Shown in pieces: positions 3,433 to 64,000 of a DNA stretch of 64,000 nucleotides. The notes under the pieces were generated by a model. That model had not been told where the DNA came from and searched no databases. It was given only the letters and a program-made list of their open reading frames with translations. The DNA is from Dudresnaya verticillata. Lineage: Eukaryota. Made by a program: the position numbers and the translations under genes. The stretch covers positions 2,170,001-2,234,000 of the forward strand of contig OZ374557.1 of NCBI GenBank assembly GCA_977862235.1, given 5' to 3'. Position 1 is the stretch's first letter. Each line of letters opens with the position of its first letter.

Positions 3433-3891
3433 TTGGGGTTAAACGCGACAGGGGAGATCTTGAACATTTCCGCGCTGCAGGCGAGAATGTGTCTACAAGG
3501 TCTGCGGAAACCACCGCGAAAGGCATCTGGTCAGTGCAGGACATGTATGTGTCATCCTGGTGAATCCAATGATGGACTTATTCAGCGCGTTGGTGTGGAT
3601 CCCATAATCACTGCGATGATTGCAGCGGAAGAAGAAGGGAGACATATTGATGGTCTGGAAAAACTCGGATTTACCTTATACGACAGGACGATCTTTCCCA
3701 GTTTTAAGAAGAAGGGTTATGGGGAGGAATACCGTCGCCGGGCCCTGAAAGCTGCCTATTCTGCCGCACAGACCGCCGCAATGAACAGAGACCCTAAAGA
3801 ACCAAGTGCCAGCACTGCAGCTGGGAACTCTTCCAAGGTCTTCAGGAGGTGGCCCCGTTACAGAAGCAATAGAGATAGCTATTTGCCTTAA
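3433..3891 (+). pseudogene. ORF-X fragment, unknown cargo protein
   Basis: PGESNDGLIQRVG...EGRHIDGLEKLGFTLYDRTIFPSF...YGEE aligns with PDESDEDMVLRIG...EGKQFVGLEALGIRLFDWSVFPTF...YGKE at 24423-24893. Confidence 0.6.
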
Positions 3892-17892: not shown

Positions 17893-18991
17893 ATAGCCTC
17901 GGAGGAGACTGCTTGCTTCGCGCTCACCGGTGCAAGCGTGTGCGTGATTGAGACGAGTTGCTTGGGGCGCGGAGCGCCTTTACATCAAATCGCTAGCAAC
18001 CTCAATACTACGAGAAGGATTCATGCCCCCACCATATGCAACCAGTGCATGCATGGCTGCTCCATAAACCGCATTGCCGTAGACACTAACCGCAACTTCG
18101 TTGATCAACGAAGTTGCGGTTTCGAAGCTCTTCAAGTCCATTAGCCACTTATTCAAATCGCCTCCCCGAGAAGATAGAATTTCTTCAGCCGCAAGCGACT
18201 ACGTTCTGAATCCTGAATATCTTCTAGCATTCGTTCGGACTCTGGAACAAGGTAAGCAGACCTCTCTCGGCACTTCGCATTTCTTGATTCGTTTGCATCC
18301 ATCATACTCGCCGTTTGCTGAATAGCTTCATCGGCGTCGGCGGGCTATGTTGCTGTGCACAATTCTTCAGCGCCAGTAGGAGTAGCTTTCGCCATGATTT
18401 TCTTCCCTTTATCTTGATTCTGAGTTTTTCTGGGACAGAACATAGGGGGTTCACGTTGAGCGGAAGTCCACAAATGTCCCATCTTGTAAGATGGGACTCA
18501 ATGCTTTGGACAGGGGTTGCTGTATATAGCAACCCCTGTCCAAAGCACTGAGATTCGTATCATCTCAGCACCAACAACTCTATCGACGATAAAACAATTC
18601 ACAGCTTCATCACGCGACTCATTGTGTGTGGCCCTCTTACTCTTACTACAACGTAGTGGGTGTTGCCCTGGGTGTGACTGCAATGAAAGTTTGAGTACTG
18701 CAATTACGAACTGCTTGAATTGCAAAGGTAATCCCCCATGATCCAGTAGAATGGCTGTACCTCTGTCGCTGTCTTCCTTCGTCTCATTCTCAGCAAGTAT
18801 TCATGTTGAAAGAGGTCCACATGATGACAACTTCGCGTCGTCCCCTCTCCTCGTCTCAGGCATCCCAGACACTCGCCCCATGGAAACATCGTGATGCTCT
18901 GGTTCTACCTCGACGGTCTTATACAGAAATACAACTTTTTAGACGTCCTTCACTCACAAGATAACCCCTCAGCTTGCTGCACAGTTCGCTA

Positions 18992-19357
18992 TCAGCGTGC
19001 ATCATCTGCTCTGGCAATAACTACAGACAAGACGAGTTCAACCCCATACAGAAAGTTTCGTTTAATACCCCTCACATCCAAACCCACACACGCCTCTGAT
19101 TCAGGATCTTCTACCGTCCAATTCAATGGGATCGCCCAGCCCAGCAACCCTAACACATCCCGAGTTCCCCTCATCACCCCCTCCCCAACCTGCCCGGCTC
19201 TCTCCATCATATCGCGTGCCCATCCCATGAGCTGCTCCCGGAGCCATAACGTTGTATCCAGCTCAGCTAGGGCAACTCCGCGCGTCTCGATGACTTCAGC
19301 ACGGAGAGCCCTGAGTGGTTGTAATAGGCTTTCCGGAGCAGTGTCGGAAGGTAACAT
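18992..19357 (-). pseudogene. Unknown cargo ORF-Z with an inverted paralog at ~25520-25850 (+)
   Basis: NWTVEDPESEACVG vs KWTAVGPESEA*VG; 26/28 nt inverted match between 19082-19109 and 25751-25778. Confidence 0.4.
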
Positions 19358-19649
19358 TTTGTCACTGTGCGGGTCACGTTCGGGTCCGCGATTTCCTTCA
19401 TATATACTTCGACGGCGCCACTGGAAAGCTTAACGAAATTTCGTTACCCTCCGCTCCAACCGTGTCAGTACGCTGACCTGTTGGTCAAAAACCCTCTGCT
19501 CGATTCAACTTCGCAAGCTCTTCTAGGAGGAACAAGATGAGGCGTTTAATAACCTCATTCAACCTTGACGGGGGCTCACATCCTGTCCGCTAGCATCGTG
19601 GTTAACAATAGCGTCCGAAATCCCAGGACCCTGCTCCACTTTCGCTTCA

Positions 19650-22123: not shown

Positions 22124-23710
22124 AGTTATCTTGTGTGAGTTTCCGAATTGTAGCAGACCTTATCGCGGAATGCTGAAAGCCTTGATAACCACTTGCGAGT
22201 CACGAGCATATGCTCGTACATGTGGAGAACGTTCTGTTCACTTCGTTACCGTCGAGGCTCAGAGGGCATTCATTTCGGACAGTGGGTGGCGTATTGGTAC
22301 CGCACTGTACATGCCTGCTAACTTGTTGCGTTTCCAGTATCAAAATTGTTTGACCGCCTCGTGCACATTGCACTTTTCAACCCGGGGATACCACCGCCCA
22401 GTGCGCAAAGTGCTGGGTTCAGAATGGGGCGACTATCCGAAAGGGCAGACCTCCCATGCATACATTCTGATTTTATCTCCCTTCCTAATGACGGTCCGCC
22501 TGAATTCGTAGGTGGAGAAAAACAATCATGCAGGTTTTGCCTCCACGTAACAGCTTAACATTCTGCTTCCTCAGAAACAATTGGGTGACATTTCTAACTG
22601 TCGGAAAGTCCAGTGATTCTGATTCACGTCTGCCCTAGAAGCTCAGGGAGGAGAAAAATTGGGCATGCCTATACGGAACGCATCTACAACGTGGAGCCGG
22701 CATTGGAAGTCTAACACTCTTTGCCTGTCAGTGATGTGGACGATTCAGAAGCAACGTTCATTCGTTCTACTTGTATCCATATGAACGTGTCCGTGAGAAA
22801 CAATAGAGATACGTCCCGTTCTTGCCACGGGCTGCAGAGATAGTTTCTGTTAGACACTTGAACCACCGAAACAGACTAGTGATCACCATCGATCTTCAGA
22901 TGGCACAACACACTTAAGTCTGCTGCCCAATTCCAGAACGTATGCAAATGCCATGTAATTAATTATTGCCGCACGTCAGCCCAAGAAAGAGCCTGCACCG
23001 GTATGTCGATGCGATTTCTGTAGATAACGCACGTGAGACCATATAAGAGCCTAAACCGGTGTATCGATGAGATTTCTGTAAATACAGTCCAGAAGATTCC
23101 TAAGAAAAACCTGTCCTCGTTCCAGGAATGCGCACAAACCGTATCCTCCAGAGGTCCGGGTATTCCGATCCACGAATCCACCAAATATCTGGGGGGTGCA
23201 TCCGCGGTGATGCAGGAGTGACCACCAAGTAGAGGGCACATTTCTGAAGCGTCCTTATACTATTGCCTGAATAGGTACTTCAGTACTGTACAGTCGTTCT
23301 GATTGTGGGAATGCGGACGTGTCTAATCAAAGATACAAGGAATTCCTAAGCCTCGTACACAGCAGAAACCGGTGGCTACAACTCGAGGTTAATTCCCGGA
23401 CTGGTATCGGCGGGATAGATTTCGAAATGCACCGAATGGTTCATGGTCGGTGTAGCGTTGGGTGCCGCAGACAGCTGTCGCTAGCTTGCAACCTCTTGTA
23501 AGTCTCAGGTCATTGTTTAGTTTGCAGTTTCGAGACATACTGGAGTTGAATACTCAAGCAGGAGACGTTAGTCAATCGAGGTTAAACGTCAGTCCAGAAT
23601 CGATCTTCGAATCTTATTTTCCTTGTAAAAGCGCGCAATCGGGTACTTCAATTCACAAACCATCTCGACGGTTCTGAGAACGGAGTCGTACCATACACAG
23701 AAAAGAAGGA

Positions 23711-24277
23711 TTGTTCCCAAAGTGTATTCGTAATATTCTGGACATGCTCATTGACCTGCTATCCTTACCGGACAACATACAATCCGGTTTAAGTGCATGT
23801 AATGACCTTATGCGCTGTGACTTGCGCATTGGATTGGGACAGCAGCAGTATCGCCTTGACGGCAACTCTTTGCAATTTTCTGAACGTATAATGCGATCCT
23901 TGGAGCTGAAAGATGAAGAAGGAGGGTTGGAACAGAACCGCGCTCGGGTGTTTGAGGCCGTTATAGGCCAAGACGATCATGACCAGAAAACGCTCACAGT
24001 GGTATACCGTGCGGGTATGAAGAAGCTTGATTATGTGTCGGGGGATGCGTTCTGTGGATCTGAAGCTTATGGAATCGATCCGGTGTTGGTCAAAACGATT
24101 CGTCTCGCAAGTGAGCCAGTACGGGAGCTGGAGGGAATGTGCCGGCTTCTCCTGACATGGCATTTTGCCAAAACTAACGCAGAAGGGACTGTGGAGGTGA
24201 AGGGGGTAGGGGTAGCCCGTGCAGAGCATGACATTCGCGTAATATTCAAGAAGGCGTCCTCATGCAAGTCGGTTTAA
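23711..24277 (+). CDS. Hypothetical cargo ORF in TIR element
   Basis: 188-aa open frame with protein-like composition; no motif recognised. Confidence 0.3.
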   Translation: MFPKCIRNILDMLIDLLSLPDNIQSGLSACNDLMRCDLRIGLGQQQYRLDGNSLQFSERIMRSLELKDEEGGLEQNRARVFEAVIGQDDHDQKTLTVVYRAGMKKLDYVSGDAFCGSEAYGIDPVLVKTIRLASEPVRELEGMCRLLLTWHFAKTNAEGTVEVKGVGVARAEHDIRVIFKKASSCKSV

Positions 24278-24422
24278 TATGGGCCAAGGTCGAATTCGAC
24301 CAATCAATCTGATTCCGAACCAAGGGACAATACTTGGAGAGGCGCGTCGGTTTGGAATAGGCGTGCATATGGCCGTACCTTTCATTTGCGGTAAGGTTAG
24401 CAACGCAAAGGCGTCGACGATT

Positions 24423-25100
24423 TTACTCCTGAAGGGCGACGTAATACGCGTTACGCTCTTGGCGGGTTTTGAATTTCCCATCTCCCCGCGAGAGCACTCC
24501 CAACACAATGGCTGTCCCGGGGTTTGACATCAGCTTCTTTTCCTCCCTCTCGTGAATCTCGAGTAGGAAGGCCTTGAAACCCCCAAGTCGTTCAGCTTGT
24601 CCGTGATTATTTAAATTTTCTTTGCCGTAAACGCGATTCATGAACGTAGGAAATACGGACCAATCAAAAAGTCTGATTCCCAGTGCCTCCAAGCCGACAA
24701 ACTGCTTCCCTTCGGAGATGATGTACTCAATACGTGCAATCAATTTGGCCTCGCCGATGCGAAGAACCATGTCTTCGTCACTTTCATCAGGTCTGCGCAG
24801 GGCGTTAAAACCAAAACAGGACTGGTCGTGGCACATTCCAAGCAGTTCATGTCTGTTATCTGTTGCAGGCTCGACATATAAAAAGTCCGACATGTTCCGA
24901 GGACATACACTCGGAATGGCACAGGGGGTAGTATCTCAGCAGATGATGTCGGCAGCCCGAGCTAGGGCCGCTAATGTTCCGCTGGGCTGCATACCGCGTC
25001 TTATCTGTACTTGTTTTGGATTGGATTCATCATCCCAGCCATATTCAGTGTTCAGACGCGCAACTTTTAAGCCCTACCTTGCGGAAGGCCAGAGAACCAA
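24423..25100 (-). pseudogene. ORF-X, unknown cargo protein (copy 2)
   Basis: 156-aa ORF plus an upstream stop-interrupted extension; homologous to 3433-3891. Confidence 0.6.
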
Positions 25101-26254
25101 ATTGATTTGTGCTTCGACACGTGTTCACGGCAAATAACAATACATGCGTTGCTCTCGACGCTTGATTCAATACATGTGAAAGACCTGTACAGTTTCATAG
25201 GAGTGGAGTATGCCCCGGGGCAAATACAACTCTCGTTAATAGCATCAGAATGGCCTTTCTGGGTCCAAGTCTTTATTTCCGCGCCTTGGGCGTCGGTGCA
25301 ATCTTCAGTGCAGTCTTCAGAGCATGTATCTCTACAATTGACGTCATTCCACCGAGTATATGCTGGATGTCACGAGATGAATACCCACAGGCATTCTGCT
25401 GTGGCAGCCCGGGTGATGGAAAAGAAATCACACACAAACGTTGGTTTCATCGTGCAGGGCTCGATGTTACAGATACCTGTTGAACTGAGGGACTGAACCT
25501 GCTCGAGCTGGAGACAGGGAAGTGTGCGGGATATCCGTAATGATTTGTTCCCTGTCAAACGCAAACTGAATAGTGTCTGATTACAATTGTTTTTAATGTA
25601 TCCATTTGAAGTCACTGGCCGCTGGTGTTTTGAGGCCAATCCAGCTACCGTCTGCGCAATACAATCCGAATAACAATTGACTCTTGTCGGAGGAATCAGG
25701 CTCCAAGCCCCCCAAGTTGGCCAGAGTAGCAGTTCCAAGTGGACAGCAGTAGGTCCTGAATCAGAGGCGTGAGTGGGTTCTGGATGGAAAAAGGTAAAGC
25801 AAAATTGCAGCTCACGAAGCAATTTCAAAAAGGCTAGCAAGTGAGACCAAGTTCGCAAGCACGCCCCATTCACCAGCACGTCCAGCACACCGAGCACCTT
25901 CGGTTGTACTCGCAGCGGGTATTGACCAGGCAGAATGTTCTGAACCCTGGCGCGCGCGTCTGGGAAGCGGGGCCGTGACAGTTTGGACACGGTTTGAAAT
26001 ACAAACCCTAAACTCTCTGTAGTGCTGCCAACACAGTCGTTTGCGTGCAATTAGTCCGATACTCAACCATTTTTAACTCACATCCTGTTCCAGACGCGGG
26101 CTTCGTTTGCTAAGGGCGATCTGAAATGTAACGGCGTTTTCAGGACATGGTGTGCGAGGTAGAGACAGAGCATCACGACATGCCTATGCTGCGAGCGCCT
26201 TGGGTGCGTGGTACGAGGGCACACGACGATCTGAAGTTGTCATCATGTCTGTGC

Positions 26255-26949
26255 AGTCGTGCCCATTAGCCCTTCACCGCCTTTCCTCGCTGTGCGCTTA
26301 CCAAGGAAACCACACTTCGCACTACCGTTGCGCTGCTGCCGACTGCTAGGCCGTGGAAAGCAATAAAGCAATGAAGCTGCAGGAGTAGTCGCGCAGGTAC
26401 TGAGCTAGATTTGGAGGCGGTTGTTGGTTCAGGCGCCCATCTGCACAGCTTTAGAACGCGGTGACGGTGATCTGTATGCGTTCCTGTACGGACGCGCACA
26501 GGACAGTACAGCAGGTGCGGTGAGAAGGCGTGTCGCGGCAGAGTAGGGTATGTGGAAACAGGGTCGCGCACGCATCTGCGCGGCTTTGAGCGGGGCGGTA
26601 CGGTACAGTCGGGGCATTGTGTGCCATGGGGGGCGTGCCGTGGCATCGGGGTGTGGGGGGCGAGCGCGTGGGGCAGGTGGGGACCGGGGGGACCAATTTG
26701 GCCCAGTGCGGACCACAGATTGGTCCGGGCGGGACAAATCGACGCAAGGAAATTATATTTCGGAAAACCTAGAAATATTTTGTGTAAAATCACGCAAACC
26801 GCAATAACTTTGGAACAAATGGTCCGTTGGCCAATCGGATTTCACCATCGCACTCAGGGGACGCTTACCTTTCCAAGGATGCCACAATATAGCTTCTTGA
26901 CTTCAGTCTGTTTTCAGAGTCAGATTCTGGAATGGCTTAAATGGGTGTT
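26255..26949 (-). repeat. Right terminal inverted repeat
   Basis: Reverse complement of 17205-17892. Confidence 0.92.
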
Positions 26950-28079: not shown

Positions 28080-29378
28080 GCGCATTTTGTCGACCTCATC
28101 CTGTTATGCTTGACGGGCCTTCGGGCCCGACCGAAAAGGTTGCGTAAACACAGGTTTTGAACCTTCTTGAAGATCAATATGGTGTTCGGTAACCTTGATG
28201 GTGCCGCGTTGTCCGTCCCACATACCGGCGAACGGTTTAAGCATTTTGCGCACGCGGCGCCGATCCGAAGTGGACAGGTGTTCCAGCGCGAGTTCATAGA
28301 CCGTAATAGCGGTTGACGCTGATGTCGCAATTTTGATTCCAGGCTTAGAGTCTATATCCGTCTTCAGAGTAGCAGCAAGCCCTGCCCCACTACATCGGAT
28401 AATATTTCGGACGAGGGAAGCGAGTCACTGTCAGGAACATTATTCTCGATGGAGACAGTGTAGACCGGCGTCTGCGTGGGCGCCGGTACAGCCTTGCCAA
28501 GGCTTTGATTCTTGGAAAGCCGTTGAGGACGCGAAGAAACGTTCGCGACCTTGACGTGAAAGAGTCGGTTCTCTTGAATGTTGACGATTCCATTCTTCAA
28601 AACGAATTGTCGGTGCTCGTATAAGCGGGGGAGGAATTCCAGGAAATGTGTTCCTTTGGTAGAACAGGTCACAGGAACCCATGACTCACTGTCGGGCAGT
28701 AAATTAGTAGTTTGTGCGACGCGAATGAGTCGCGAGTTAGGTAACGGGGGAACCTCCAGTGGTTCTTCAGACCTGCCCTCACGAGGTATACCACATCGGC
28801 GGCGTAGAATTGGGTGAATGGATCCGTTGCGAAGAACCATGTTTTGTTGGTGGACGCGCAACCCTTCCACGTGGGTATCGATAAACGTGCAACTCAAAAT
28901 GGCATCTACTGCAAATACCCTTACGACAAAAAAGGTTGTCGAACCGTGTAGGACCCGAGCGTGATTATCAGGGAGACTGTTCCCAGTGTAGTTAGTCATT
29001 GACTTGACGCGGAGATCAAGTTCACAATTGATCGCGTTGTAGAAATCCGTTTCTTGTCTTTCGGTGATAGAACATCCGCGCGGATGATATTAGGGGCTGC
29101 CCCTGTATCCAATACGGAGAGAACACGATTAAGGTCGTGAACAGAAGTCCCGATGGACTCAGATACTTTATAGTTGTAGCGCGACAAAGAGAAAACGGGA
29201 GCCTTACAATACTCATGATATTTCCGTCCAGGGGTAAGCCCATGGGACGCGCTAAGATCTTCTTAGGAAGAGAAGTAACAGATTCACTGACAACCGGTCG
29301 ATCCGTTGAGGAGAAGCTTTCGAAACTGTAGCTCGAGGAGCTGGATTCAACGTACCGATCGGGGGGTTCCGATGCCAC
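28080..29378 (-). pseudogene. pol: pol fragment: aspartic protease and linker
   Basis: RVLSVLDTGAAPNIIR; AVDAILSCTFID; collinear with 39227-40440. Confidence 0.85.
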
Positions 29379-29389
29379 CTGAGATATGT

Positions 29390-31985
29390 GGTGTACCGAA
29401 ACCGGGGCCCCCTCGCTAGTTTTTCGCCCTCATTTCTGGCAACCACGGTAGCGGTGGAGGTGGTGGGAAGGGACCAGATCCTTGGCGTGGTGATCTGGGC
29501 GTTTGCCTCAGAACGTCAATGGGGTGGTTCAGTCGAGGTTTTAATTGAACCTGTCGATTTCCCCCTTGGTTTGCACCCAAAAATTCACGGGGCTCCATCG
29601 GATGCCCTATGGGCGGCCCGGCGGGCACTCGCTCGTCAGCGAACTCCGGTAGTCGGTCACCGGTCGCCAACCACTCTTTTTGCTCGCGTGATAGTTGATG
29701 AAACTGTCTTCTTTTAAAGTCTCAAAAGACTGCTCATCGGTACGAGCCAAATGTGGACAGTTGGGCGTTTTATGGCCAATGCCGTAGCATTCGAAGCAGA
29801 TATCATTGGGTTGGTCTTCAACCGTCATCCACCCAGGGCGTTGAGTCCTGGTTGGCTGTGACCGGGCTGGAAACCTATGATTGTAGTTCTGCAGTACCGC
29901 GTCAACTTCACCGTGATACGGTTGGTCGTAGTAATACTGTCCTGTCTACCACGAGTCCGATTGGGTCGCTGTTGATGGTGGCGCTTCGTTAGCAATTGCG
30001 GCCACGACCGCGTCTTCGCTTTACGCATCAGAGCCACTGCTCTTTGAAGTATCCGAATAGAAGGCGGATGCATCCTTCGCCTAGCGAATAAGGAGTGCCC
30101 GTCCTGACTTGTGAGTACGAATTTTCTTCAAGGTCTTCCTTGGTAGCGTCCTATTCGCTTTTGGCGTTCGTCCGCCACCCACCAGCGCCCAATGGGAATA
30201 TCCCTGTGCAATCGCCAGCGCGACATAATCCGCCAGTCTGGTAGTCCTTGGGTCCAATGACGACGTACTTAAAAGAGGCTTCACCGCTGGTACAAAACCA
30301 CGAATAAACCTGGTTATCAAATCTTGTTCGGTGTATACACCAGCGACTCGACGCGCTTTGTTCTGCAACCTTCTTGAAAAGGTCACCTCGTCCTCATCTG
30401 GCTCCTGTGCCATAGTGTCCATCTCAGAGGCAATCCTCTCAATATAGAAGTCCTTGGCATAAGTCCGAAGGAGGTAATTCACGGCTTCGGGCTATTCGGT
30501 GAAACCGGCATTGTCGTCACCCGCAGCGTCAAAATTCGCTTCAAACATATCCTTCGCATCCTTCTCGAGGAACTCGGGGGTGGCGAGGATAGCGGCACCT
30601 TCGCTGATATGGGCTTGATCAAGCTGCCTCTTCAGCGTGGCTAAGAAGCCAATAATTGACACAGGGTCACTTCCGTCAAAACGGCGACTCCGCGTAACGG
30701 ACTTGACGCGTTTGACTTTCTTCGTTTTCCCCTCGGTCACCTCGGGCCCGCGGTAATCATCCAGGTTCAATAACCTACATATTCTGTAGGACAGTACCTG
30801 TATGAAGTCGGGATTCCTAGGAGTCAGCTCCTTCACACCGGCACGTCGGGGACCCTTCCACGAAGACCGTGAAGGTCTAGAATGCGAACGGGAACCCGGT
30901 CCTTCTTCATCCGATGGACCTGGACTAGGGTGAGACCCTGACCGATGATTCTCTTCGTGGCGATGACTTGAATATCGGTTACGATAAGAATCCACTTGGT
31001 CACGGTGCGCAGAAGACCCAATTGGTCTGTTGCATTTGCAACCAGATTGGCAACGGCCTCCATCTCCTTCACCTGGGGACCCACTGTACGACCCCCTATG
31101 GGGTAGCCTCCTACGCCTGTCGCGCGTGCCGCGAGGTACCGGTGACCGACGTCTCATGACTTCAGGGATAGTATCCCTTTCGCGGATTACGCGCCGCATC
31201 TTCAATTCCAGAAAAGCGACACGACGCTTCTCCTCATCGAGGTCTTTCCGTAGGACCTCGATGGCTCTGTCCTGTTCAACGCACCGTGCGTTGTCTACGT
31301 TGAATGGAACGTCCGCAATAGCCATTACGGATTCTGTCCTGGAAAGGTGGGCAGCCTTCGAGGCTTCATCTAATTCAAGGTGAACCGATTCCAATTGGTC
31401 CCCCAGTGAGTCCACTTGGGCTTGAAGGGTCTCGACCCTTTCCTCTTCTAAACCCCTCAAGGGGCGTTGTTGGCAACGAGAAGTGACCATCTCTTGGCAC
31501 TTAGCCAGTAGCTGGTCGTCTCGACGAGCGGTGTCGTCGTCGAAATAGCGTTTTACCCGGGTGAGGGTTTCGTCCGCCTCGCTTCCAGGTAGCGCCAATA
31601 CGCTAGTTCCGAGAGCATTTTCGATGCCGGTCTCAACCAAATGACCAATCTCACGCTCCGTGAAGCACCGTTGGTCGGTTGAGTTTGCCTTTGTTCTCAT
31701 CGGCATTCCGATATCTGGCGGAAGCGATGAAGTCGTTTCTTCTTCTAAGGCCAGTCCGCCTGTATCATGCTGGCTGTAACCAGATTGAAGCATCAGCGGC
31801 GGCAGCATCCTTGGATTCGGGCCCTCATTCGCACCGATGTTGGTGGTGCTGGTGGCTGCAGTCCGGGCCGTGTTTTCTCCTTCAGGGATCTGTCCCTTTC
31901 CACGGGCATATGGATCTTGATCTCCTGGTGCGCCCGCCATTCGGGGCGGGCGTTCCACTTCTCGTACTATAGGACCTCGAGCCAA
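29390..31985 (-). pseudogene. gag: gag (stops/frameshifts)
   Basis: ORFs 30492-31985, 30081-30482 and 29607-29828 are collinear with 36414-38989. Confidence 0.85.
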
Positions 31986-32607
31986 AGCGGCTACACACGG
32001 GTTCTTGCTCCCGTGATCCTCACGGAGGATAACCTGCCTGTACGGCTACCGCCCGGGCTCGTTAAGCCTCGCTGGGTGGTATCACCGCTAGATGGCGGCG
32101 TCTTCTAAACGAGGTTGTTATCGACAACCTTGAAACGTAGGATTCGGTTCTGTGGTTGCACTACTCGTGGAACTTCTCCCTAGGATGGAAACCTTCTCAG
32201 AACCGTAGTTCTCGGGGTTACGGGCGATTCCGTCCACGTGGAACGCCCAGCGTGCGCGCCCGCATAGCCCGTATACAGACATGATTTTGATGACAGGTGT
32301 CACGAGAACCTGCAGGAAGAGTTCCTTGAAGGGGCGTCACTCCACGACCAGGATCGTCTTCCTTTTACACGATTAAAACCGCAGAAACGGTGGCAGTTGC
32401 TTGCCTCGAATTTGACGCAACTTCAAAGCTTGGTGTGAAGCTGAGAGACCGTCGACACTGGGCCGACTATGGTTCCACCCTCAGGAAGTTGTTCCTTAAA
32501 TTCTTGCCCGGGGAATTCCCGTCCCGTGGAAAGTTCCGTACGAAGACTTGAGGATGAGGTATTAAAAAGGGGCCGACCCTAAAAACGATTCGAGGTCGGG
32601 AGACCAC

Positions 32608-36026: not shown

Positions 36027-36413
36027 GAACAAGTTCTCTGGGTTGACCCTCTTACTACGTTGCCCTCGACGGGTCGAATCAAGACTCTCAATTCAGGACG
36101 GTTAGTCCGTTGAAGTTTTAAGAAATCTTCCTTTCGAAGGGTGAAACCCTCTTCGTCTCATTGTCGAAGGTTTCTACACTCTATTTCAAGCTCCGGAGTT
36201 ACGTCAAATCTTGTGAGCAAGCAAACTACGTTTACGGTTTTTAACCATCCGTAGAAGTACCTTTCAACGTCGGACTGACGCCCGGGTTGAGCTACTTCAA
36301 CAGGTTTTCCTTGCATCCTGAGAAAAAACGTGTAACGCTACGGTTCCGAACTGTCGAGAAGCCTGGGAAGAAGTCCCCGTTGAATCGTCGACAGAGCCGA
36401 AAATTCCAAGAAG

Positions 36414-39113
36414 ATGCCGACATCTAATGGCGACACTACCCGGTCCAGTTTAACGAGCCGTGGAGCTAGCCGGACTGGCAGTCTTGCATCCGTAAGGACG
36501 ATTGGAGCTCGCACCCGCGCGGTTTCAAGCGCCCTTATAAGAAATCCGGGAACGGATGAGCCGGGACGGCCGCCAAGAAGGACGGGCGCCCCGACTGGAG
36601 AAGAAGTACCTGGACCAGGTGGGTATCAGGTCCCGGAAGGCGAAAATACGGTTAAAACCATCGGAGACATCCCCGCTGACATCGTGGAGAATTTGGGTTC
36701 GAACACTGAAACCATGCCGCCACCCACAGCTTTAGCCAGTCTACAAGCCGAGGGTGGACGAGCCCTAGAAGAAGAAACATCGGCGACTCCGGACGTGGGG
36801 CCGCCGCCAAGAACGAAGTACAAATATTCGGGTGTGCGCTGCTTCACGGAACGTGAAATAGGGCCCTTGGTCGAATTGGGAGTCGAACGGTCATTAACGA
36901 CGAGCGTCGTAGCGCTCCTGGAAAGCCAAGCCGATGATACCTCTTCAAAGGTGAAGAGATATTTCAACGAGGCGTCGGCGCGCCGTGACGACCGCCTGTT
37001 GGCAAGAGATCGAATCTCGATTCCAACAAGGTCCTCTTCAAGAGGATTAGAAGAAGAAGGGGTTGAAACCCTGCAAGCACAGGTTGAATCACTGGGCGAC
37101 CAGTTGGACGCCGTCCATGGAAATCTCCATACGATTACCAAGATTACGGATCTTACTCGAGAGGAAGCCGTAATGGCTATAGAAGACGTTCGTAAAAACG
37201 TAGACGACACAAGGTGTGTCGAACAAGACAGAGCGATCGAGCTCTGAAGACAAGAGCTTGATGCAGAAAAGCGGAAGGTTACATTGCTGGATGCAAAAAT
37301 ACGGCGACTTAGGTGCGAGAGGGATTTAATACCCGAGGTCGAGCGGCAACGCTCCCCTGTGCCCCGTGGTACCAAAGACCGTCGCAGGACATCTCGGAAA
37401 CGAAACTCGGATGGTGAGTCTGGGAATGACGACTTTGGTCGTGGGAGGTCTGAACACCGCCGGTGCGATTGCCGGACAGCTCATGGATCCAACGGATTCC
37501 GCAATCCAAAGGGCTCCCGGCAAGACCGGCTCTCTAGCCGTAGTTTGGTCGAACAACGTCAAAGCCGCTTACATCATACCCCGATGCAATCGGATGAGGA
37601 CGAACCGACGTCTAGAGGCCTTTCCAGACCTGCTTGGAGTTCCTGGCGAGGACCCCGTCGAGCGGGAATCAAAGAGTTAACTCCGCGAAACCCTGCTTTT
37701 ACACAGGTCCTTTCGTACCGGAGATATCGGTTGCTGAACGTCGATTCATATCGAGGGCCCGAGTTGAAGCCACATTGAAGAAGAATAAACGGGTTAAATC
37801 CGTAATGAGGTGTCGAAGATTCGATGGGAGTGACCCTGTTGCTATTGTTGGCTTTCTAGCCACCTTAAAGCGACAGCTTGATCAAGCTCAAGTGAGTGAA
37901 GGTGCGGCCATCCTGGTCATACCCGCGTTCCTTGAAAAGGATTCAAAGGACATGTTGGAGGCGAACTTTGATGTAGCCGGAGACGATAACGGCGGATTAA
38001 ATGAATGGCCGGAAGCCATCAATTATCTTCTGTGTACATACGCCAAAGATGTATACATGGAGAAGATTTCTTCAGAAATGGACATGATGACTCAAGAGTC
38101 GGCCGAGGATGAAGTTTCGTTTTGTAGACGTCTGCAAAACAAGGCGCGAAAGGTCGCTGGAGTTTACACAGAACAGGACTTGATAACGCGTTTTATACGT
38201 GGATTGATACCAGCGGTCAAACCGCTCGTGAGTGCGTCGTCTTTGGATCCTCGCTCTGCGCGATTGGAGGACTATGTGGAGCTGACGACAGCGCAAGGAG
38301 ATTCACACCGCGCCCTAGCGTGTGGTGGACGTCTTCGGAAAGCGAGCTCTGCGCTATCTCACAAAACCCTGGCTCGGGTGTTGATTTACAAGTCCGGACG
38401 CGCCCTCCTCATTCGTCAAAATAGGACTCAACGGTCCTCGGATTTGGACACCTCGAAGAGCAGTAGCTCTGATGCGGACAGTGAAGACGCTGTCGTAGCA
38501 GCCATTGATAGCGAAGCGCCACCCTCTACAGTGACCCAATCAGACACGGGGTCTGGTGTGCCAAGCGACCGGCCGTACTACGGAGAAATCGACGCCGTTC
38601 TTCAGAACTACAATAACAGGCTACCTGCATGGGCACAACCTACGAGGCCTCAGCGTCCGGGATGGGCGACTGTCAAGGACATGCCGAACGACATCTGCTT
38701 TGAGTGTTTTGGCGTAGGTCATAAAAAGCCTAATTACCCATTTTTGGCTCGTACGGATGAACCGTCATTTGAGGCCTTAAAACGCCAGCAGGTTTACCAA
38801 CTGTCTCGTGAACAGAAGGCATGGATAGTTACCATCGGGCGCCTGCCCGAATTTGCAAACGGGAACACCTGCACTGAGCATCACGATTTTGCATCGTCCG
38901 GACGTGGAGCAGGGCCATCGAGAGGGCCTCCCCAAAATTTGGGGCCGGCCCCCAGTAGAAATATCCATGTCCAATTTCAAGGAGGGTAGAACCACCCAGT
39001 GAACGCGCCGCGACAGCAGCCGACGGCGCCACGCTCGCCAAGACCAGGGTTCCGAACCCTTCCACCGCCTCCACCGCTACCGCGGTCTCCTGTTAGTCGA
39101 CCGAAAAACTAGC
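36414..39113 (+). pseudogene. gag: gag (interrupted)
   Basis: ORFs 36414-37247, 37284-37778 and 37634-38989; FDGSDP, NYLLCTYA, degenerate knuckle CFECFGVGHKKPNY. Confidence 0.88.
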
Positions 39114-39226
39114 TAAGGGGAAACCGGTTTCGGTCCCTGGCCGACTCCGGTCGTATCAGCCATATCGGAAGCCCCGATCACTCGGAGAAATGTGACTTCC
39201 TAAGCGCTTCCTCAACCGACCGATCA

Positions 39227-42200
39227 GTGTCATCGAAACTTCCGCCTCTTCTTCAAAAGAAGATATTAGCACGCCCCGTGGGCTTATTCCCCGGGTCTAA
39301 GTATCATGCGTACGTTACGGACCCAATCTGCTCGCTCTCGCGATACAACTATAAGGTTGTCGCGTCCGTTGGGACCTCTGTTGAACATTTAACGCAAGTA
39401 CTCTCCGTCTTGGACACGGGCGCGGGCCCTAATCTCATCCGAGCAGACGTGCTCTCTTTGGAAGATAGGAAGAAAATTTCATCGAACCGATCGATCGCTA
39501 AATTAACATCGGCGTCAAGGCATCGTTTAGTTACCCTGGGGATGATCTCCCTGGTCGTCAGGATTGGCACCAATACGGTTCGTCAACCGTTCGTCGTATT
39601 CAAGGCTCTAGCCGTGGATATGATTTTGGGTTGCACCTATATCGATACCCACGTCGACGGGCTAGGAGTGCGCAAGCAACACGTAGTCCTGCGAGACGGC
39701 TCGGTGCACCCGATTCTACGCCGCCGATTTGAAATCCCGCGAGCTGCAAGCTCTGGAGAATCTATGGAGGTACCTCCTCTGCCTAACTCGCGACTTGTGA
39801 GAGTTGCCCCAACAACTAACTTGCAACCCGGTTCGGAAACCTGGGTCGCCGTCATATGTGCAGCTAAAGGAATTCACTTCCTGGATTCGTTTCAACGGCT
39901 GTCCGACCATCAACAAGTCGTTGTCACGAACGGAATCGTCAAGCTTCAAGAGAACGTTCTGTTCTGCATGAAGATCGCCAACGTTTCGTCTCGCGTGCAG
40001 CGACTCAACAAGCACCAAGTAATTGGTCGAGCTATCCCAGCTCCCATGGCCATGCCAGTTTATTCCGTTTCCATCGACAATTTCCCTGACAACCCGGTCC
40101 CGACGTCAAAATATTCGAGTCCTCATGCATAAACATCCTTCGATGTAGGGGGCATGGCTGGCTGCTGCTCTCGGCGCGACCGATTCGAAACCAGGCGTGA
40201 AAACCGCTACTGAAAACCCAACGGTAGAAGACCTGGCACTAGAACACCTTTCGACGTGTGAGAGACACCGTGTCTGCAAAATGCTACGACCTTGCGCTGA
40301 CATGTAGAGCGGGAAACTTGGGACCATCAAGGTTACAGAGCATCGTATCGAGCTCATGAACGGGTCCAAACCCGTATTTGCGCAACTATATGGGTCAGGA
40401 CCGAAAGCGCGACAAGCGGAACAAGACGAAGTTGATAAGATGCTCAAGGAAGGAGTCATAGAGCCTGCGTACTCGGCATTTGCAAGCCCAGTAGTACTGT
40501 TTAAGAATCCTGACGGATCTCTCCGTTTCTGCGTTGATTACAGGAAACTGAATGCGATCACAATTAAGGATTCATATCCTCTACCTCGAATGGATGAGTG
40601 TTTAGACTTATTGGGCGACGCCCAGTACTTTACAACTCTCGATTGTAATTCGGGTTACTGGCAAATACCCGTAGCAGCGGAAGACGAGGCTAAAACAGCG
40701 TTTACCTGTCATGAAGGTTGTTTCCAGTTCTGCCGAATGCCATTCGGATTGTGTAACGCGCCGGCGACCTTTCAGAGAACCGTTGATATCCTATTAACGG
40801 GTTACCGATGGAAGTCCTTTCTCTTCTACTGGGATGATATCATAATCTTCTCAAAGAGTGTCGACGAACACTTAGGACATGTTCAAGAAATAATCTCAGT
40901 ATTGAATGAAGCGGGAGTATCGCTCAAGCTCAAGAAGTGTAACTTCTTCACAAAAAGGGTGGATTACCTAGGCGATGTGATCCGGCCAGGATTACTGGAA
41001 GTAGATACGAAGAATATTCAAGCCATCGAAGGTTTCAAAGAGCCTAAGACCCAGACACAACTACGATCGTTCATCGGGTTGTGTAACGTCTATAGACGCT
41101 TTGTGCCGAACTTCTCACGAGTCGCATCACCGCATAATAGACGTCTGCAGAAGGATGTGGGATTCGAACTACCTCCATTTGAGACCAACAACGCGAAGCG
41201 TTCGAGTTATTGAAAAAAGCGCTAATAGCGCCACCGATTCTCCGACTCCCGAAAGAAGATAGACCTCTATCGGGATACCGATGCGTGTGACTATCAGATA
41301 GGGTGTGCCCTTATGAAAATGGAACCGAATGGAACACGTCACCCTATCGGGTTTTGGAGCCTAGGTCTGACTCAGGAAGAACGGAATTACTCCGTCGGGG
41401 ATAAGGAATGCCTCGCGGTGGTCTGGGCCACCCAAATTCTCAGACCATATTCAGAAAGGTCGCATTTTGACTTGTACACCGACTACCGGGCACTCAAGTG
41501 GATGATGAGTATGACGGATGCATCCGGTCGACTAGCGCGTTGGCGCTTGCGACTCCTCGAATACGACTTCACGGTTCAATACTGTAAGGGAAAGAAGAAT
41601 CAGATAGCTGATGCCGTCTCTCGACTACATACTTATGTTTTTACCAACTGGGAACCGGATCTGGAGATTCCTTGCTTTGTAATCGCTGACAGCGATCGGA
41701 CTGATCTTCGCAACCTTTCTGCTGAAAGAGATTCGCGAGCGGACGCCCCATCCAGACCCTTGGAGATCTGGAAGGTGGAACCCGAGGATGATTCAATCGA
41801 GTCGCTACTCGAGGATGAACAATTAATAGCCAACGTGACTGAGAAAGAAGTGGCCGAAAAGAGTCTTTCTCTGCTCACCGTGGAGGACATTCTTTGCTCT
41901 CAGCGAACCGATCAATTCTGTATGGGTATCAAACTCGCCATCAAATCCGGAAGGCCAGGCTGCTATCTGGAAGATGAACGAGGACTGCTAGTCCGACGGT
42001 TTTATATAGACAATACACTACAGGTAGTGATACCTAGAGCCCTCCAAGAACGGGTCCTACATCTCGCGCACTACCAAGAGATGGCCGGTCACCCCGGTGG
42101 GACAAAGATGTATCATAATTTGCGCCGACAAGTATTCTGGCCTGGCATGGCTCTCGCGGTATATGCGACAGTTCGAAACTGTGTGAACTGTGCACAGGAA

Positions 42201-43578
42201 CGTGTTCAGCTACGACAACACGCTTCCCATATGAAGTTGTTTCCGGCTACCATGCCTTTAGAGTTCTTGGGGATTGATATCCTAGGGCCGCTACCTCGAT
42301 CGAGTAAGGGCAATGCGTATCTGCTCTACTGTGGCGAAAGCGTTCTGCGAACATTGGATATACACCTACGGGCCTCCCCGTTATGTCCTGTCGGACAATG
42401 GTTCGCAGTTTGCGTCTAAGTTCTTCATAGCCGTCTGCGGCATTCTCAAGATTTGGAATCTGTTTACGTCGATTTATCATCTGCAGACGAACGGACAAAC
42501 CGAAAGGCTTAATATTGGGATGAATTCACGTCTGCTCTGACGTACGCATATAATACGACCGTTCATCGTGCGACGGGTCTCGCGCCCATTGACTTGGGTC
42601 TATCCAACCCGCCGAAGTCCCTTCTAATGTAGAAAGCAGAGACGGTGGACGTTGCGAACGTGCCACCGGTTAATTTCAAGAAGCGGTTAACCGCGTGACT
42701 CGAGAAGCTGATGGAAACAGCGTTGCCACGTCTACGCATGGCACAACAGCGATATGAAGTCAACCTCAACAATCGTATGCGTCTGACTAATCAGAAGTTA
42801 CGCCCGGGTAACTGGGTATTTCACGAGAGAGACGAAAATGAAAGACACCATGGGCGTGGCCCGGGAAGGAAAATTGTTTCCAAAGGCTCTTGGCCCATAC
42901 AAGATCCTCGAAAGAGGAACACACACTGTAGTGTTGGAAAGGAATGGCGAAAGAGAATCAGTCTCTCTGGACCGTGTAACGCTGGGCCCATCACCGGAGG
43001 AAGAGCTTGGAGTTCTAGGGCTAGCCCCACCCATTGTGGAGGCTACTCCTGGACATGTGGAGCCAGCAGGACCAATTATTGAGTCAATACCCACCACTGG
43101 TCCAGGCGTCGTACCATCGCCGAACATTGTAAGAGAGGAGCCGCTGGAAGCGGGCGCGAAACACGCAAGTGCGCAGACTGTCGCCCCTCCGCGGGAAGTG
43201 ATCGAGGATATCGATAATGGCGCTGGCCCGGTTTCTGCCACCGTACCCCTTTTCGATGAGGTTATCATACCGTCTGGTCTGAACGATACAGGGCCAACGG
43301 TCACGCAGGGCCTAAGCCCTCCTCAAGCACATGGCGAGATGATCTCCCCTAATGCAGATGCGGCGACCCCGCGTCGTACGTTTTCGCGCTTCAAGAAAGC
43401 CCCGCCACGGGAGCATGTTTATGACAAATTGGTCGACTACGACTCCGAGTCGAAACAGTACAAGGTGCGCTGGTACCAGTGCCCTGCATCACGGGACACA
43501 TGGGAACCGCGAGAACACCTCCCAGCAAATCTAGCGAAACGGTATCACCGTGCGAAGGGGATTCCCTTCTCGGGATAA
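39227..43578 (+). pseudogene. pol: pol: protease, reverse transcriptase, RNase H, integrase, chromodomain (interrupted)
   Basis: LDTGA; LRFCVDYRKLN, MPFGLCNAPATFQR, YWDD; TDACD/NYSVGDKECLAVVWA; GHPG..CxxC, SDNGSQF, QTNGQTER; YKVRWY...DTWEPREHLP. Confidence 0.93.
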
Positions 43579-50059: not shown

Positions 50060-52043
50060 ATGTTGTGGGGTTCCTCATCACGGCGGTTCGTCACAGACCC
50101 AGGCTCGTCAGATTCTGACATATCTGATGTGTCAGAGCTTGAGGACCGCTCGTGGACTGGCTCCAATCGCATCCAGAATATTCTGTCATACTCCAACCGA
50201 CGATATCAGCACAGGAAAAGGAGGTCGCGGAAAGGATGGTTTTTCGGTCTGTTTGAAACCGTCACCCCTATTGCGAAGCGAAGGTCGACGAAGAGTAATA
50301 GGAAAACCGTCAGCCTTCCTTGTCGTCGGCAATTGACTCAGGAATGCGGTTTGGTACGTTGCATTCATTTCTCGCTAGTACGACACAATACGAGAAGTAT
50401 TTATTTGGAGGCGGAAGGCTTACCATGCTTTGGATTGTTGCGAACGTGCGAATATTGGCCAGCTTTTCTTGGCATTCCTGCTATTCATATACCTCGTTGA
50501 TTTCTTCAATCTCTTGTATCGAGAAAAGAACTTTGTCCATGAAGCCAGTACTAAGGTGTCTTCTTTGGCAGGTCATTCCATGTATCAGCGTGACTTGACG
50601 ATGGCGTCACGACAGGAAAGAGCTTCTGCCAATGATACAGCCAGCCAGACCAAACACTTGCCAAAAGAACATTCTGAGTTTGGAACTGTTCAACGGCACT
50701 CGGGACTAGGAAGCCGTGCGGTAATTGAGCGAAAGCAAACCACATCACACATTACGGGCAGACCAATGGAATCAATAGCAGGGATAGACCCTGGAACTGT
50801 CACAAGAACGGACAGTTCGGGAACTTCTGGAGTCGTCCGAGGACAGAAGGGCACGTATTTAGGACACCCTATGAACAGAGATGTGAATGGCTTACAAGTT
50901 CCTGGTAACACGGGGGTGTTATCTGTCGACTTGGTTAAGAGATACTACCGTAGACTGGTAACAACTTACCTTGAGTCTTTCAAGAATGGAATCTACAGAC
51001 AGATGTTCTTTGATGTTTTAAGGCGTCGTACGTACTCCTTGACACCGCCAGGTGCCAACAAAGGCGCACAGACAATACTCTTTCAAATAATTGATAATAG
51101 AGTATTCATGATGGATCCCTACGAAGTCCCTCGGAATTCGAAGCCCTTCTACAGGACTCGTATAAACCAAGTCATTTGGCTACTGTCGAAACTTACAGCA
51201 GAGAGAAGAATCAAAAACACTGAGTTTCTCATGGCGATTCATGACTGTGTGCAGACTGTGGACAAACCTCATGCGTATCGTGGAGCACATTATCAGGAGT
51301 CTAACCCCGTGTTTACCATAGTCTCCTGCAACTTTTCTGATAATATCCCATTCCCAATGTGGGAAGGAAGCAAACATCGTGATGGTGGTTTCTCAGGCTG
51401 GGATGAAACCGTAAAAAAGTACGCCGAGGACGATACTCCATGGGCTCAAAAGCAAGATCGAGCGGTTTTTCGAGGCGGGAATAGGCCAAGTATGTATTTC
51501 AAGAATAAGTCAGAAGCTGATGACCACTGCCATGACGTTGGTAGGACCCGGCTGCAGTTTCTGTCACAGCAGCAGCCGGATGTTCTTGACGTGTCCATTG
51601 GTGGGACGTGTGGTGGAGTCCGCACTTATCTAAATCGTCTTGAGCCTCGAGAACATCACAAGTACAAGTACATTTTATACGCCGAGGGTAACTGCATGTG
51701 GGCTGATCGGACTCGCACGCAACTTTTCGGGCCGTCAGCTATTATCAAGCAAGAAACGCCATGCGGACAGTTTTTTGAGCCTCTGTTGAAACCACATACT
51801 CATTATATCCCAACAGACTTCTTCTTTTCGGACACAGTGGAAAAGGTGCTGTGGGCACGAAAGAATAATGAGAAGGTGCGGGAAATGGTTTCGAATGCCA
51901 ATGAATTTGCATTCAACTTCCTGACATTGAAAGGAATTGAGGCATACGTGGACGTACTTCTCGAAGAATACACGAAACTCCTCGTTGAGCCTGAGGTCAA
52001 ATTAGAGAGCGGCGCCATGGATGTGACTGATAAGAGGGTTTGA
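50060..52043 (+). CDS. Glycosyltransferase family 90 (CAP10/KDELC/POGLUT-like), probable type II membrane protein
   Basis: Open frame 50430-52043 with PWAQKQDRAVFRG, KYKYILYAEGN..WADR and FFEPLLKPHTHYIP; hydrophobic segment ~50425-50510; 5' extension to ATG 50060 needs two 1-nt homopolymer corrections. Confidence 0.85.
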
Positions 52044-59863: not shown

Positions 59864-60174
59864 AACACTAATTTCGCCGGCTACAGAATTTCCAAAACAG
59901 AACAGAATTTTTTGAGGGTCGTTGAATCCCGGCGTTCGATAGCGCGTTGGAAAGGGGGCGCTACCCTGAGAATAGTGGTGCAAACAGATCGGAGCAAACG
60001 CAAATAGTTTCGGAGTTATGGGCTCCGGTATATGGGGCCCCCCGGGTCGAAAGTTCCCGAAAGTTGTGATTTTTCCGAAAAGTTTCAATTAAAAATTCTC
60101 CAGAAATTGATTCTGGCCCGTCCCGCCGCCCGCGCCCCCACCCCCCGACCGCACACCGCATTCTGGCGACTTCT

Positions 60175-60298
60175 CGCCGCATTCCGACGCGCTCGGACTT
60201 GGCTTCCCACCGCATTCCGACGCGCTCGGACTTGGCTTCCCACCGCATTCCGACGCGCTCGGACTTGGCTTCCCACCGCATTCCGACGCGCGCTCGGC
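60175..60298. repeat. 33-bp subterminal tandem repeat, ~3.5 copies
   Basis: ccgcattccgacgcgctcggacttggcttccca repeated. Confidence 0.9.
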
Positions 60299-62020: not shown

Positions 62021-64000
62021 CTACCCAATCTTCTTCATGTTGCGCAAGTCCCACGAGAACAACAAGCCGTTTAGGCCCTTGAGATTGGCAGGAGGGTCCT
62101 CTACTCCCTTGAATATATACGGATACGAACTTAGCTCATACTCCGCCATGACCTTCAAACTGTACACGACCACAAGATGCTCCCCTGGTTTGGCAGATTC
62201 TGACAGATCGTGGCCGTGCAAGCGTTCATTCCAGTTCCCTCCTGGAGTCTTTTCCGGATGCAACACGGCCTCCCCCACTTCCTTATCATCTGCAAGAAGC
62301 GTGACTCTGTCTCCGGCCTTGGGCATTGCACAAGGTTCAGGTTTTTCCTTCTCCTGCACTTTTCATTCAGCTCCACACTTCCTACAACTATGTCTTCACT
62401 CCTGCCGTGCTTCTCGATACTCTCTTCGGGGTCATCCAATGCGTGCTCGGACGGTGTCGTCAGATGGGACATTTCAGGTCCCTTCCTCGTTACGGAATGG
62501 TTTGTTGGTTGAGCAGAATCTATTATGACAACACTACCTCTTGCTGCCTCACCGATACCATTCAGTTCGTGATGAGCACTTGATTCCAAACGTTTACGAC
62601 CTGTCTTCATTTCATATGCTTCCGTGGCAAGCCTACGTAAACGTTCAGCCCCCAGCTTGAATGTTTCGATCTGTGATTCGATTAGTGTACACCGACGATC
62701 TGTTCTGAGAGCTGCAATCCCAGTCGTCATGGTTCCGCTGTGCATATCCAGAACTGATACGCCCTCCGGACAGAATGTTGTCATTATCTCCACAAGTACT
62801 TCGGGAGACTTCTCTTCGACCAGAACTGGGGACTTGGTGCCTGGGCGTAGCAACTTGTGTTTCGGTGTTGGTAGAGAGGACATGCACGCGAATTTCCGCT
62901 TTTCTGGGGAGGGGATGCAGTGATACTCGCTCCTAAGGTCGAGCGAGAACCCTCCGCCATGCTGACCTGGGGCACGCGCCATGACGGCTATTTCCACACA
63001 GTTCTGGGGCATACCGCTCCCCCGATGTTCCTGCATGGTCTTGGGGTCTTTGGAGAATACGAATGGGTATGCCGGGCACATGAATTGTGCCTTCTTCAGA
63101 GCATCGTGGAATACACTGAAGTTCAGGAATGACGTGAAAACAAACAACCACCCCCTGCTACAAGTACGCGCCTCGAGATCTCAACTATCTTCTTAATGTC
63201 TTCCTCGCTGAGGTAATTATCGAATGACCTCCCCGACTTAGACTGCGATTTCGGTGTACCGTATGGTGGATCTGTGAGGATTAAATCGAATCGTTTGTCA
63301 CCTTCCTTCCTTACGGTACTGTTGTAGCTCTGCCATGTCATCTGAAAGCATGTCAGTTTCATTTCCGCAAGATAATCTATTGGAACAGAAAGCGATCCGT
63401 CCTCCACCGGCACAGCCTTAGTACCCATGTTGAGGCGAACGGACTGCTTTGATAACACAGTTGATATAGTGGGGTCTGTGGGACTCTTTTCCGGCACAGA
63501 ATGGTCTTTGGCTGCACATGCAGCTGTAGGGTCTGCGTTCTGCATGGGTGCCTGTCCAGATTCTGCTGGTTCGCGACCCTCTTCCCTTTTCGAATTGGTT
63601 GATGTTACTAAGTCTGAACCCTCTTCGTCGTTAGAGATTCCGGTAGCGTCCACCTGCGGTGACAACGTGCAGTCCAAATTCTGTTGACCGTCAGAATCTT
63701 TTGCTCCACATTCATTGGAACCCGGGCGGGTCATGATAGCGTCATCACGTCTGCCTTCTGTCGAATCCATCACAGTTTGCATATCTTTGTACTTCTGCAA
63801 CTTCACTGGGGCCTCTTCCGGACAACACTCTCTGTACATCTCAACTATTGTTTTCAACAGTGTACGGTCATTACCTCGATTCATGATGACCTCGACGTCC
63901 AGCTTCGTAGTGTATAACAGGTTTTCTCTTAATTTACTCATGCCTAACGGCCATTCTGTCCCCTCCCTCATTGCTTCAAATTTCCGACTCTCGGAAAGGG
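62021..64000 (-). CDS. Beta-class DNA amino-methyltransferase fusion, copy 3 (C-terminal ~660 aa; two 1-nt homopolymer frameshifts)
   Basis: RFDLILTDPPYG (motif IV), EEKSPEVLVEIMTTFCPEGVSVLDMHSGTMTTGIAALRTDRRCTLIE (motifs X/I/II), C-terminal domain 62021-62359; no in-frame stops once the frames are joined. Confidence 0.8.

Follow-up and report, generated by a model that had tools for sequence, protein, structure and literature searches.

A copy of a transposon-borne DNA methyltransferase gene in the red alga Dudresnaya verticillata has two one-base shortfalls and is probably a young pseudogene rather than a whole gene with assembly errors

We report that a stretch of 64,000 nucleotides from Dudresnaya verticillata (contig OZ374557.1, positions 2,170,001 to 2,234,000; hereafter the window) carries at positions 62021-64000 the end of a transposon-borne DNA methyltransferase gene with two one-base shortfalls, and that this third copy of the gene in the window (copy 3) is probably a young pseudogene rather than a gene misread by the assembler. 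The evidence that bears on the origin of the two breaks is indirect and leans towards a recently inactivated copy, with assembly errors as the less probable source. Moreover, the predicted protein is placed by its homology in a poorly described family in which a putative DGQHR/ParB-like part, a methyltransferase and a C-terminal barrel are joined in one polypeptide.

Copy 3 lies on the minus strand (63998-62021) and consists of three open frames, each of which is reached from the previous one by a -1 shift, i.e. at each junction one base is missing or two are extra (Table 1). Translation of the N frame can proceed from 63998 until it meets a stop at 63125-63123; the M frame is open from 63180 (63180-62158) up to its stop at 62157-62155, and the C frame from 62362, directly after the TGA at 62365-62363, to its own stop. 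As assembled, copy 3 thus has no single uninterrupted coding frame because of the two -1 shifts. When the three pieces are joined with an X at each break, the read-through has 659 residues and no stops, in agreement with a preliminary description of this DNA, which had noted about 660 stop-free codons and suggested that the gene may be intact. According to tblastn with the full-length relative P0155, these ~660 codons represent the last two-thirds of a gene of ~1000 codons, and the ~338 N-terminal codons lie beyond base 64000.

Table 1. Features of copy 3 and positions of the two other copies of the gene (window coordinates).
Feature	Position	Strand	Description
N piece	63153..63998	minus	Frame -3, open at the window edge; conserved helical segment (RKFE..WP..M..TTKLD..NRGND..CP..AP), low-complexity linker and first methyltransferase half to VLVAG; from the ORF list, tblastn (P0155 aa 339-610) and the family alignment
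Break 1	63151..63155	minus	G5 (plus-strand C5) between GCA (Ala) and TGG (Trp)
M piece	62362..63150	minus	Frame -2; second half of the beta-class methyltransferase with motif I, then variable linker
Break 2	62338..62362	minus	-1 shift somewhere within ~25 nt; A4 at 62363-62360, A5 at 62346-62342
C piece	62021..62359	minus	Frame -1; conserved C-terminal domain of ~100 aa, stop at 62023-62021
Copy 1	~6955-4471		5 in-frame stops, 4 frame shifts
Copy 2	~22072-20113		4 in-frame stops, frame shift via a 10-nt tandem duplication, second enzyme half lost

Homology firmly shows break 1 to be a homopolymer that is one base short where the family has a conserved GG, because the similarity to P0155 is contiguous across the site and because two residues are present there in all relatives. 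Specifically, tblastn with P0155 passes without a gap from aa 339-610 in the N frame to aa 607-783 in the M frame, and a residue stands at the break-1 X column in 48 of 48 full-length relatives in the family alignment, mostly as part of GG. Five G are found where six bases, i.e. two residues, are expected, the N frame reading VLVAGGGCLF and the M frame SRGWLFVF. One extra G at 63151-63155 had been proposed to give VAGG-WLFVFTSF, to be compared with EGGWVFIFCSF in copy 2, and both the run of five C on the plus strand and the two peptides are as proposed.

Break 2 is located loosely, since it falls in a variable, predicted-disordered linker (P0155 aa 783-902) that offers no homology anchor; its limits are the C-frame TGA upstream and the start of the C-domain homology at ~62338 downstream. 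The linker in the read-through measures ~95 codons, the same length as that of the relative P0168. The earlier suggestion that one extra A at ~62360 yields LNEK-VQEKEKP and joins the C-terminal domain holds if the base is added to the A4 run, but the A5 run or another place in the interval would serve as well. The loss of an A is hence plausible, as is any other -1 event within the ~25 nt. The view that both frameshifts are single-base homopolymer losses therefore stands for break 1, where the G run coincides with the conserved GG, but for break 2 such a loss is one of several events with which the sequence is compatible.

That the three frames are a matter of chance is contradicted by a phmmer search with the M piece against 1.84 billion representatives, in which 223 proteins matched at E<=0.001, 118 of them below 1e-10, and the best match reached 1e-54 at 53% identity. 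The full-length relatives derive from metagenome and run assemblies and are single ORFs of ~850-1050 aa with the M region at ~aa 560-800. P0155, P0162 and P0163 (each 1003 aa), P0168 (999 aa), P0002, P0007, P0012 and P0014 are collinear with copy 3; for P0155 the tblastn segments (aa 339-610, 607-783 and 902-998) follow the order of the three pieces with 55% identity in the M piece (50-55% between copy 3 and the family), and the C piece is also matched by aa 899-998 of P0168. Common to copy 3 and the family are the motifs DPPYGTPK, PGGW and LD.[YF][AG]GT.TT; unlike its relatives, copy 3 is broken twice, is cut by the window edge and has H and V in the cofactor loop. A functional name was found for none of the 20 relatives looked up, and five metagenome loci were retrieved, all of them distant (24-39% identity over short stretches). 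With the N piece and residues 1-200 of the M piece as queries nothing scored in a word-indexed protein collection.

The catalytic part of most relatives is recognised by the Pfam family PF01555 (N6_N4_Mtase, gathering score 26.7 bits). Taken singly, the N and M pieces of the split gene score 15.4 and 20.9 bits, both under this cut-off, while 49 of 55 relatives have a match at the E thresholds applied: 44 reach the cut-off (27-61 bits), five score 20-24 bits and the remaining six are without a match; in the aligned set all 18 relatives are positive. A profile search of PDB sequences returned 5hek at 2.5e-16, and the phage family phrog_67 was matched by the M piece at 1.6e-9 and by P0155 at 2.2e-24. 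In the structure that AF2 predicts for P0155 from 18 sequences, three ordered parts are separated by disordered linkers at 416-531 and 793-896: a confidently modelled N-terminal region with helices (aa 1-415), the beta-class N6/N4 amino-methyltransferase (532-792) and a beta-rich domain (897-1000). The N-terminal region of P0155 contains a literal DGQHR motif, and the profile matches in this region are weak (DndB in two of 18 relatives, best E 5e-4; DGQHR in P0155, E 0.069). The Pfam domains ParB_N (PF02195) and SET (PF00856) as well as 2OG domains were not detected in the 55 relatives scanned, and a Pfam scan of the copy 3 pieces gave no SET or 2OG domain.

For the C-terminal domain of copy 3 the AF2 model (pLDDT 79) predicts a small beta-barrel. 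Comparison of folds by VIA-align gave the best Z score, 4.9, with KOW, and the Tudor, chromo and PWWP barrels followed within one unit; Foldseek with the same model returned no match at E<=0.001 (the best E was at least 0.3), and for the C domain of P0155 the Atlas yielded nothing usable. The domain hence weakly resembles an SH3-like barrel in its predicted fold, which we regard as a lead and not as an assignment.

The order of the catalytic motifs is that of the beta class, with motif IV N-terminal to motif I. Motif IV, DPPY, is intact as had been noted (63272-63261, read-through residues 243-246), and motif I, LDMHSGTMTT, is found at 62748-62722 (read-through residues 418-426). DMHSGTMTT aligns to DPFMGSGTT of M1.HpyAVI (5hek), and the D, the G and the TT are kept. 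This motif had been described as atypical, which does not apply to GT.TT, the normal form in the family, but does apply to the H, which aligns with the motif I phenylalanine of M1.HpyAVI at a place that is occupied by Y or F in 46 of 48 relatives. A second deviation in the cofactor loop is G414V, the G being present in 45 of 48 relatives. Judged from the alignment, H and V at these two near-invariant places cast doubt on activity even if the frame were whole. In many distant family members DPPY has given way to EPPS, LPS or deletions, which makes it probable that some of the family has no catalytic activity.

The window is rich in transposons, and its only clear host gene is an ORF for a GT90 glycosyltransferase at 50430-52043, whose named homologues are from Gracilaria domingensis (66%), followed by Agarophyton, Pyropia, Porphyridium and other red algae; in the protein collection searched the GT90 protein had no match above 83% identity. 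Like the blank searches with the N and M pieces, this suggests that the species, or near copies of the element, are not represented there, and the collection supplied no intact near-identical copy from which to read the original state of the two breaks.

Copies 1 and 2 of the methyltransferase gene are true pseudogenes (Table 1). Inverted repeats of ~690 bp with 91% identity flank copy 2, and near copy 3 no terminal repeat was found in 55-64 kb. The three copies share 31-57% amino-acid identity and copy 3 has no nucleotide similarity to the other two; the idea that they are recent duplicates was rejected on these grounds in favour of old paralogues. Copy 1 also falls short from G6 to G5 at the homologous PGG|W codons, with a TGG-to-TGA change adjoining, and the G run is thus fragile, since the same shortfall occurs in a copy that has certainly decayed. 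Across the three copies four to five of seven frame shifts fit a one-base homopolymer contraction (sites b, d and possibly c in copy 1, and both sites in copy 3); site a in copy 1 is a two-base shortfall in a C run.

The reading of copy 3 as a young pseudogene is supported by this setting, in which decay of the gene is the rule and both other copies are pseudogenes. Not one of the 657 codons scored in the read-through is a stop; this corresponds to a neutral divergence of at most ~3.5-5.2% (95% level), and an inactivation would therefore be recent. Two shifts with no stop, set against nine stops to five shifts in copies 1 and 2 together, are on the unlikely side for a pseudogene. Nevertheless, the zero is unremarkable in itself, because at the natural rate seen in the inverted repeats (4 indels per 62 substitutions) two indels correspond to about 30 substitutions and these to about one expected stop.

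The main alternative is that both breaks are homopolymer contractions made in long-read assembly, in which case the gene is whole over the 660 codons in view and may code for a functional methyltransferase. Among the errors that stay behind in long-read assemblies, one-base contraction of a homopolymer is the most frequent, and polishing is most difficult in repeats. We consider this alternative unlikely but deserving of serious attention. It agrees with the G5 for an expected G6 at break 1, with break 2 as an A4 or A5 that is one base short, with the stop-free read-through and the kept DPPY, and with the fraction of contractions among the shifts in the three copies, which is what a systematic error would give. 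Conservation points the same way: of the 35 columns with a conservation of >=80%, copy 3 agrees with 33 (family median 32, range 23-35, 48 members) and keeps all 12 C-domain columns that are invariant among eight sequences. However, natural slippage prefers the same runs as assembly errors do, as the loss in the pseudogene copy 1 illustrates. Furthermore, two errors within 2 kb would be needed, while the other open and mostly homology-supported ORFs of the window, a set biased by its selection for openness, contain 26 runs of >=5 and 109 runs of >=4 in 10,458 nt and not a single break. For the same reason the error bound derived from that set, 0.29 per kb, is optimistic, and the one independent check of the error rate is the GT90 gene (1.66 kb), with two runs of >=6.

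To weigh the two readings we used a rough model with priors that are our own assumptions, i.e. ages spread evenly up to 30% divergence, and homopolymers accounting for a share of 0.8 among errors and of 0.4 among real indels. With these, the probability that both breaks are errors is 0.2-13% at 0.02-0.1 errors per kb, which speaks against the assembler, and 17-41% at 0.29 errors per kb, a rate at which values of 36-41% in its favour are reached; at least one break is real with a probability of 59-99%. A lower natural indel rate would raise the probability that both are errors.

Two further signs were considered and set aside. The spectrum of homopolymer lengths, in which compression might have left a trace, is geometric up to 9 and without any such sign, and was uninformative. 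An excess of unique substitutions is present in copy 3 (15 of 77, against 2-7 for five relatives; 40 unique changes in the 156 columns where the three nearest relatives agree, against 20-28 for each relative), but as a sign of decay it was rejected, since that much neutral change would give several stops. Copy 3 is an outlier branch with 43% identity to its three nearest relatives, which share 46-53% among themselves, and in the alignment the excess more likely reflects this long branch.

A working enzyme is less likely still than an intact frame, because the first third of the gene is outside the window and because V and H occupy the two near-invariant places in the cofactor loop; both points also weigh against the assembly reading as a whole.

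Very improbable is a third reading, in which the changes of frame belong to normal expression, through a short intron at break 2 or programmed -1 frameshifting at both runs. Around break 2, 26 GT..AG pairs would connect the M frame to the C frame with no stop in between, but their number is as by chance, the candidate acceptors lie in purine-rich sequence and the read-through linker already equals that of P0168 in length. At break 1 the homology is contiguous to the residue, and the 10 GT..AG pairs there would delete conserved residues. With respect to frameshifting, the GAA AAG of the M frame at break 2 contains A_AAG, which is a slippery motif in bacteria, but neither break has the heptamer X XXY YYZ that is the canonical rule for -1 frameshifting, and the relatives encode the protein in uninterrupted single ORFs.

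For a copy 3 that is a young pseudogene we propose the following course. One G was likely lost by slippage in the G6 run that encodes the conserved GG, and the A-rich linker then likely lost a base as well; from the assembled locus only a truncated protein would be made, ending nine codons past break 1, at the N-frame stop. The intact protein, to judge from its closest solved relatives M.BceJIV, CcrM and M1.HpyAVI, would be expected to methylate DNA adenine at N6 with S-adenosylmethionine as the donor, and its ParB/DndB-like N-terminal part and C-terminal barrel may target it to specific DNA or chromatin, probably of the carrier element.

The solved adenine enzymes M.BceJIV (8urk), CcrM (6pbd) and M1.HpyAVI (5hek/5hfj) have the same fold as the P0155 model (Foldseek E from 4e-11, for M.BceJIV, to 1e-9) and, like copy 3, carry motif IV before motif I and a DPPY. 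They differ in being stand-alone bacterial proteins of 200-366 aa with 16-20% identity, to which the copy 3 family adds ~530 aa before and ~200 aa after the catalytic domain. N4CMT of bdelloid rotifers (8s9o, 8s9m; Foldseek E ~8e-9) is likewise a bacterial-type amino-methyltransferase of the beta class that works in a eukaryote, but unlike copy 3 this is a host gene and not transposon cargo, its target is N4 of cytosine and its accessory domains are others. N4CMT is fused to a chromatin-reader domain.

In phages (phrog_67; Atlas clusters that carry both PF01555 and PF02195), a ParB-type N-terminal module is fused to a methylase of the PF01555 type, a build that the family may share; the Atlas feature scores of 0.85-0.86 provide a lead only. 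The family is unlike these fusions in that PF02195 was not detected in 55 relatives, in its eukaryotic host, in its long disordered linkers and in the extra C-terminal barrel.

The gene is of a kind that is already known, that is, DNA methylase cargo borne by transposons in red algae. The available text of a preprint on Bostrychia describes that Plavaka and other red-alga transposons carry accessory genes and that most copies are degenerate, and it lists for Plavaka PAG2, a PF01555 methylase with a SET domain, and PAG3, a ParB-like part with a 2OG oxygenase (bioRxiv 10.1101/2025.02.11.637652). As far as those descriptions go, the copy 3 family shares with PAG2 and PAG3 the setting in red-alga DNA transposons, the PF01555 methylase and a ParB-like module as cargo. 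Compared in the same way, by description, it differs in joining the ParB/DGQHR-like part and the methylase in one polypeptide, and the SET domain that follows PF01555 in PAG2 was seen neither in the copy 3 pieces nor among the 55 relatives scanned. Iyer et al. 2016, in the available part, list for chlorophytes and chytrids adenine methylases that are fused to ParB but belong to a different clade. In the literature found, to the extent of its available text, a build with a DGQHR/ParB-like part, methylase and barrel in one polypeptide was not met.

As assembled, copy 3 is probably another decaying copy of a transposon gene. The GG codons that follow DPPY form a fragile G run, which was broken independently in two diverged copies, and frame breaks in G and A runs of repeat-rich long contigs can be assigned to biology or to the assembler only with reads. 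The family, with its one-polypeptide combination of DGQHR/ParB-like part, methylase and barrel and with its many members lacking DPPY, is poorly described and may merit a study of its own. If whole, copy 3 would be the sole candidate in the window for a red-alga adenine methyltransferase that is active and carried by a transposon. That it is both intact and expressed, and acts as a red-alga transposon 6mA writer with a DGQHR/ParB-like head and a chromatin-reader-like barrel which marks its own element to evade or steer silencing by the host, we regard as a long shot; if true, it would be a transposon-encoded 6mA writer in a eukaryote, and a whole copy 3 would bear on whether such elements mark their own DNA with 6mA.

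The G run that follows DPPY, the catalytic motif IV, is broken independently in two diverged copies of the transposon-borne methyltransferase gene, copies 1 and 3. In copy 1 (5110-5060, minus strand) the run at the PGG/W codons consists of five G instead of the expected six bases; this site is homologous to break 1 of copy 3, i.e. its one-base shortfall, and the run has the same length there (five G). In copy 1 the five-G run is directly followed by TGA, at a codon where the relatives carry Trp. The sole frame shift seen in copy 2 (21700-21650, minus strand) is a 10-nt tandem duplication (ACTCGTGCCT/ACTCGTGCCA), which is a real mutation type and not a homopolymer event.

Features in the window other than the methyltransferase copies
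Feature	Position	Strand	Remarks
Second ORF	3418-3888 and 24426-24935	+ and -, respectively	common to the copy 1 and copy 2 elements
Open frame, 489 codons	7970-9436	-	Pfam DUF7869 match, 1.2e-38
C-terminal barrel domain remnant	11742-11449	-	28-31% identity to the full-length relatives P0155 and P0168
Inverted repeats	17212-17909 and 26241-26938		~690 bp each, 91% identity
Partial second Ty3/gypsy copy	28107-32045	-	inverted relative to 36384-43575
Ty3/gypsy chromovirus-like element	36384-43575	+	gag, RT, RNase H, integrase zinc finger, chromodomain
GT90 glycosyltransferase	50430-52043	+	intact, 537 aa
Tandem repeat	60170-60291		33-bp unit x 3.7, 97% match

The decayed copy 2 lies, together with other ORFs, between two long inverted repeats that differ by 62 substitutions and four indels (1, 4, 2 and 8 nt), and the region as a whole (17212-26938) resembles a ~9.7-kb DNA transposon with long terminal inverted repeats. 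The second ORFs of the copy 1 and copy 2 elements are 33% identical across 73 aa (E 2e-12), their orientation relative to the methyltransferase is not the same in the two elements, and they match no Pfam family and have no counterpart near copy 3. Adjoining copy 1 is the DUF7869 frame, and its product is a candidate DDE-type transposase judging from the look of the DNCSRENKN and GHTHVDIDQ stretches; a literature search found no paper mentioning the name DUF7869.

The more complete Ty3/gypsy element is interrupted by stops and frame changes. In both copies the reading frame changes on passing from the protease-like part to RT, and this point could be a frameshift site that belongs to the element itself. 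GT90 is encoded by the one gene in the window that is clearly of the host, and its named homologues indicate that the window is from a red alga; since none of the homologues in the protein collection exceeds 83% identity, the species seems to be missing from that collection. The 33-bp tandem repeat is located ~1.7 kb downstream of the copy 3 stop, within the GC-rich 56-61 kb.

With respect to other members of the methyltransferase family, the barrel remnant has an in-frame stop and is positioned upstream of copy 1, away from any methyltransferase. Among the distant relatives (P0041-P0137) many lack DPPY and have EPPS, EPPP, LPS or a deletion of 7-15 residues instead, while retaining the region of motif I, the cofactor loop; these family members may be non-catalytic paralogues.
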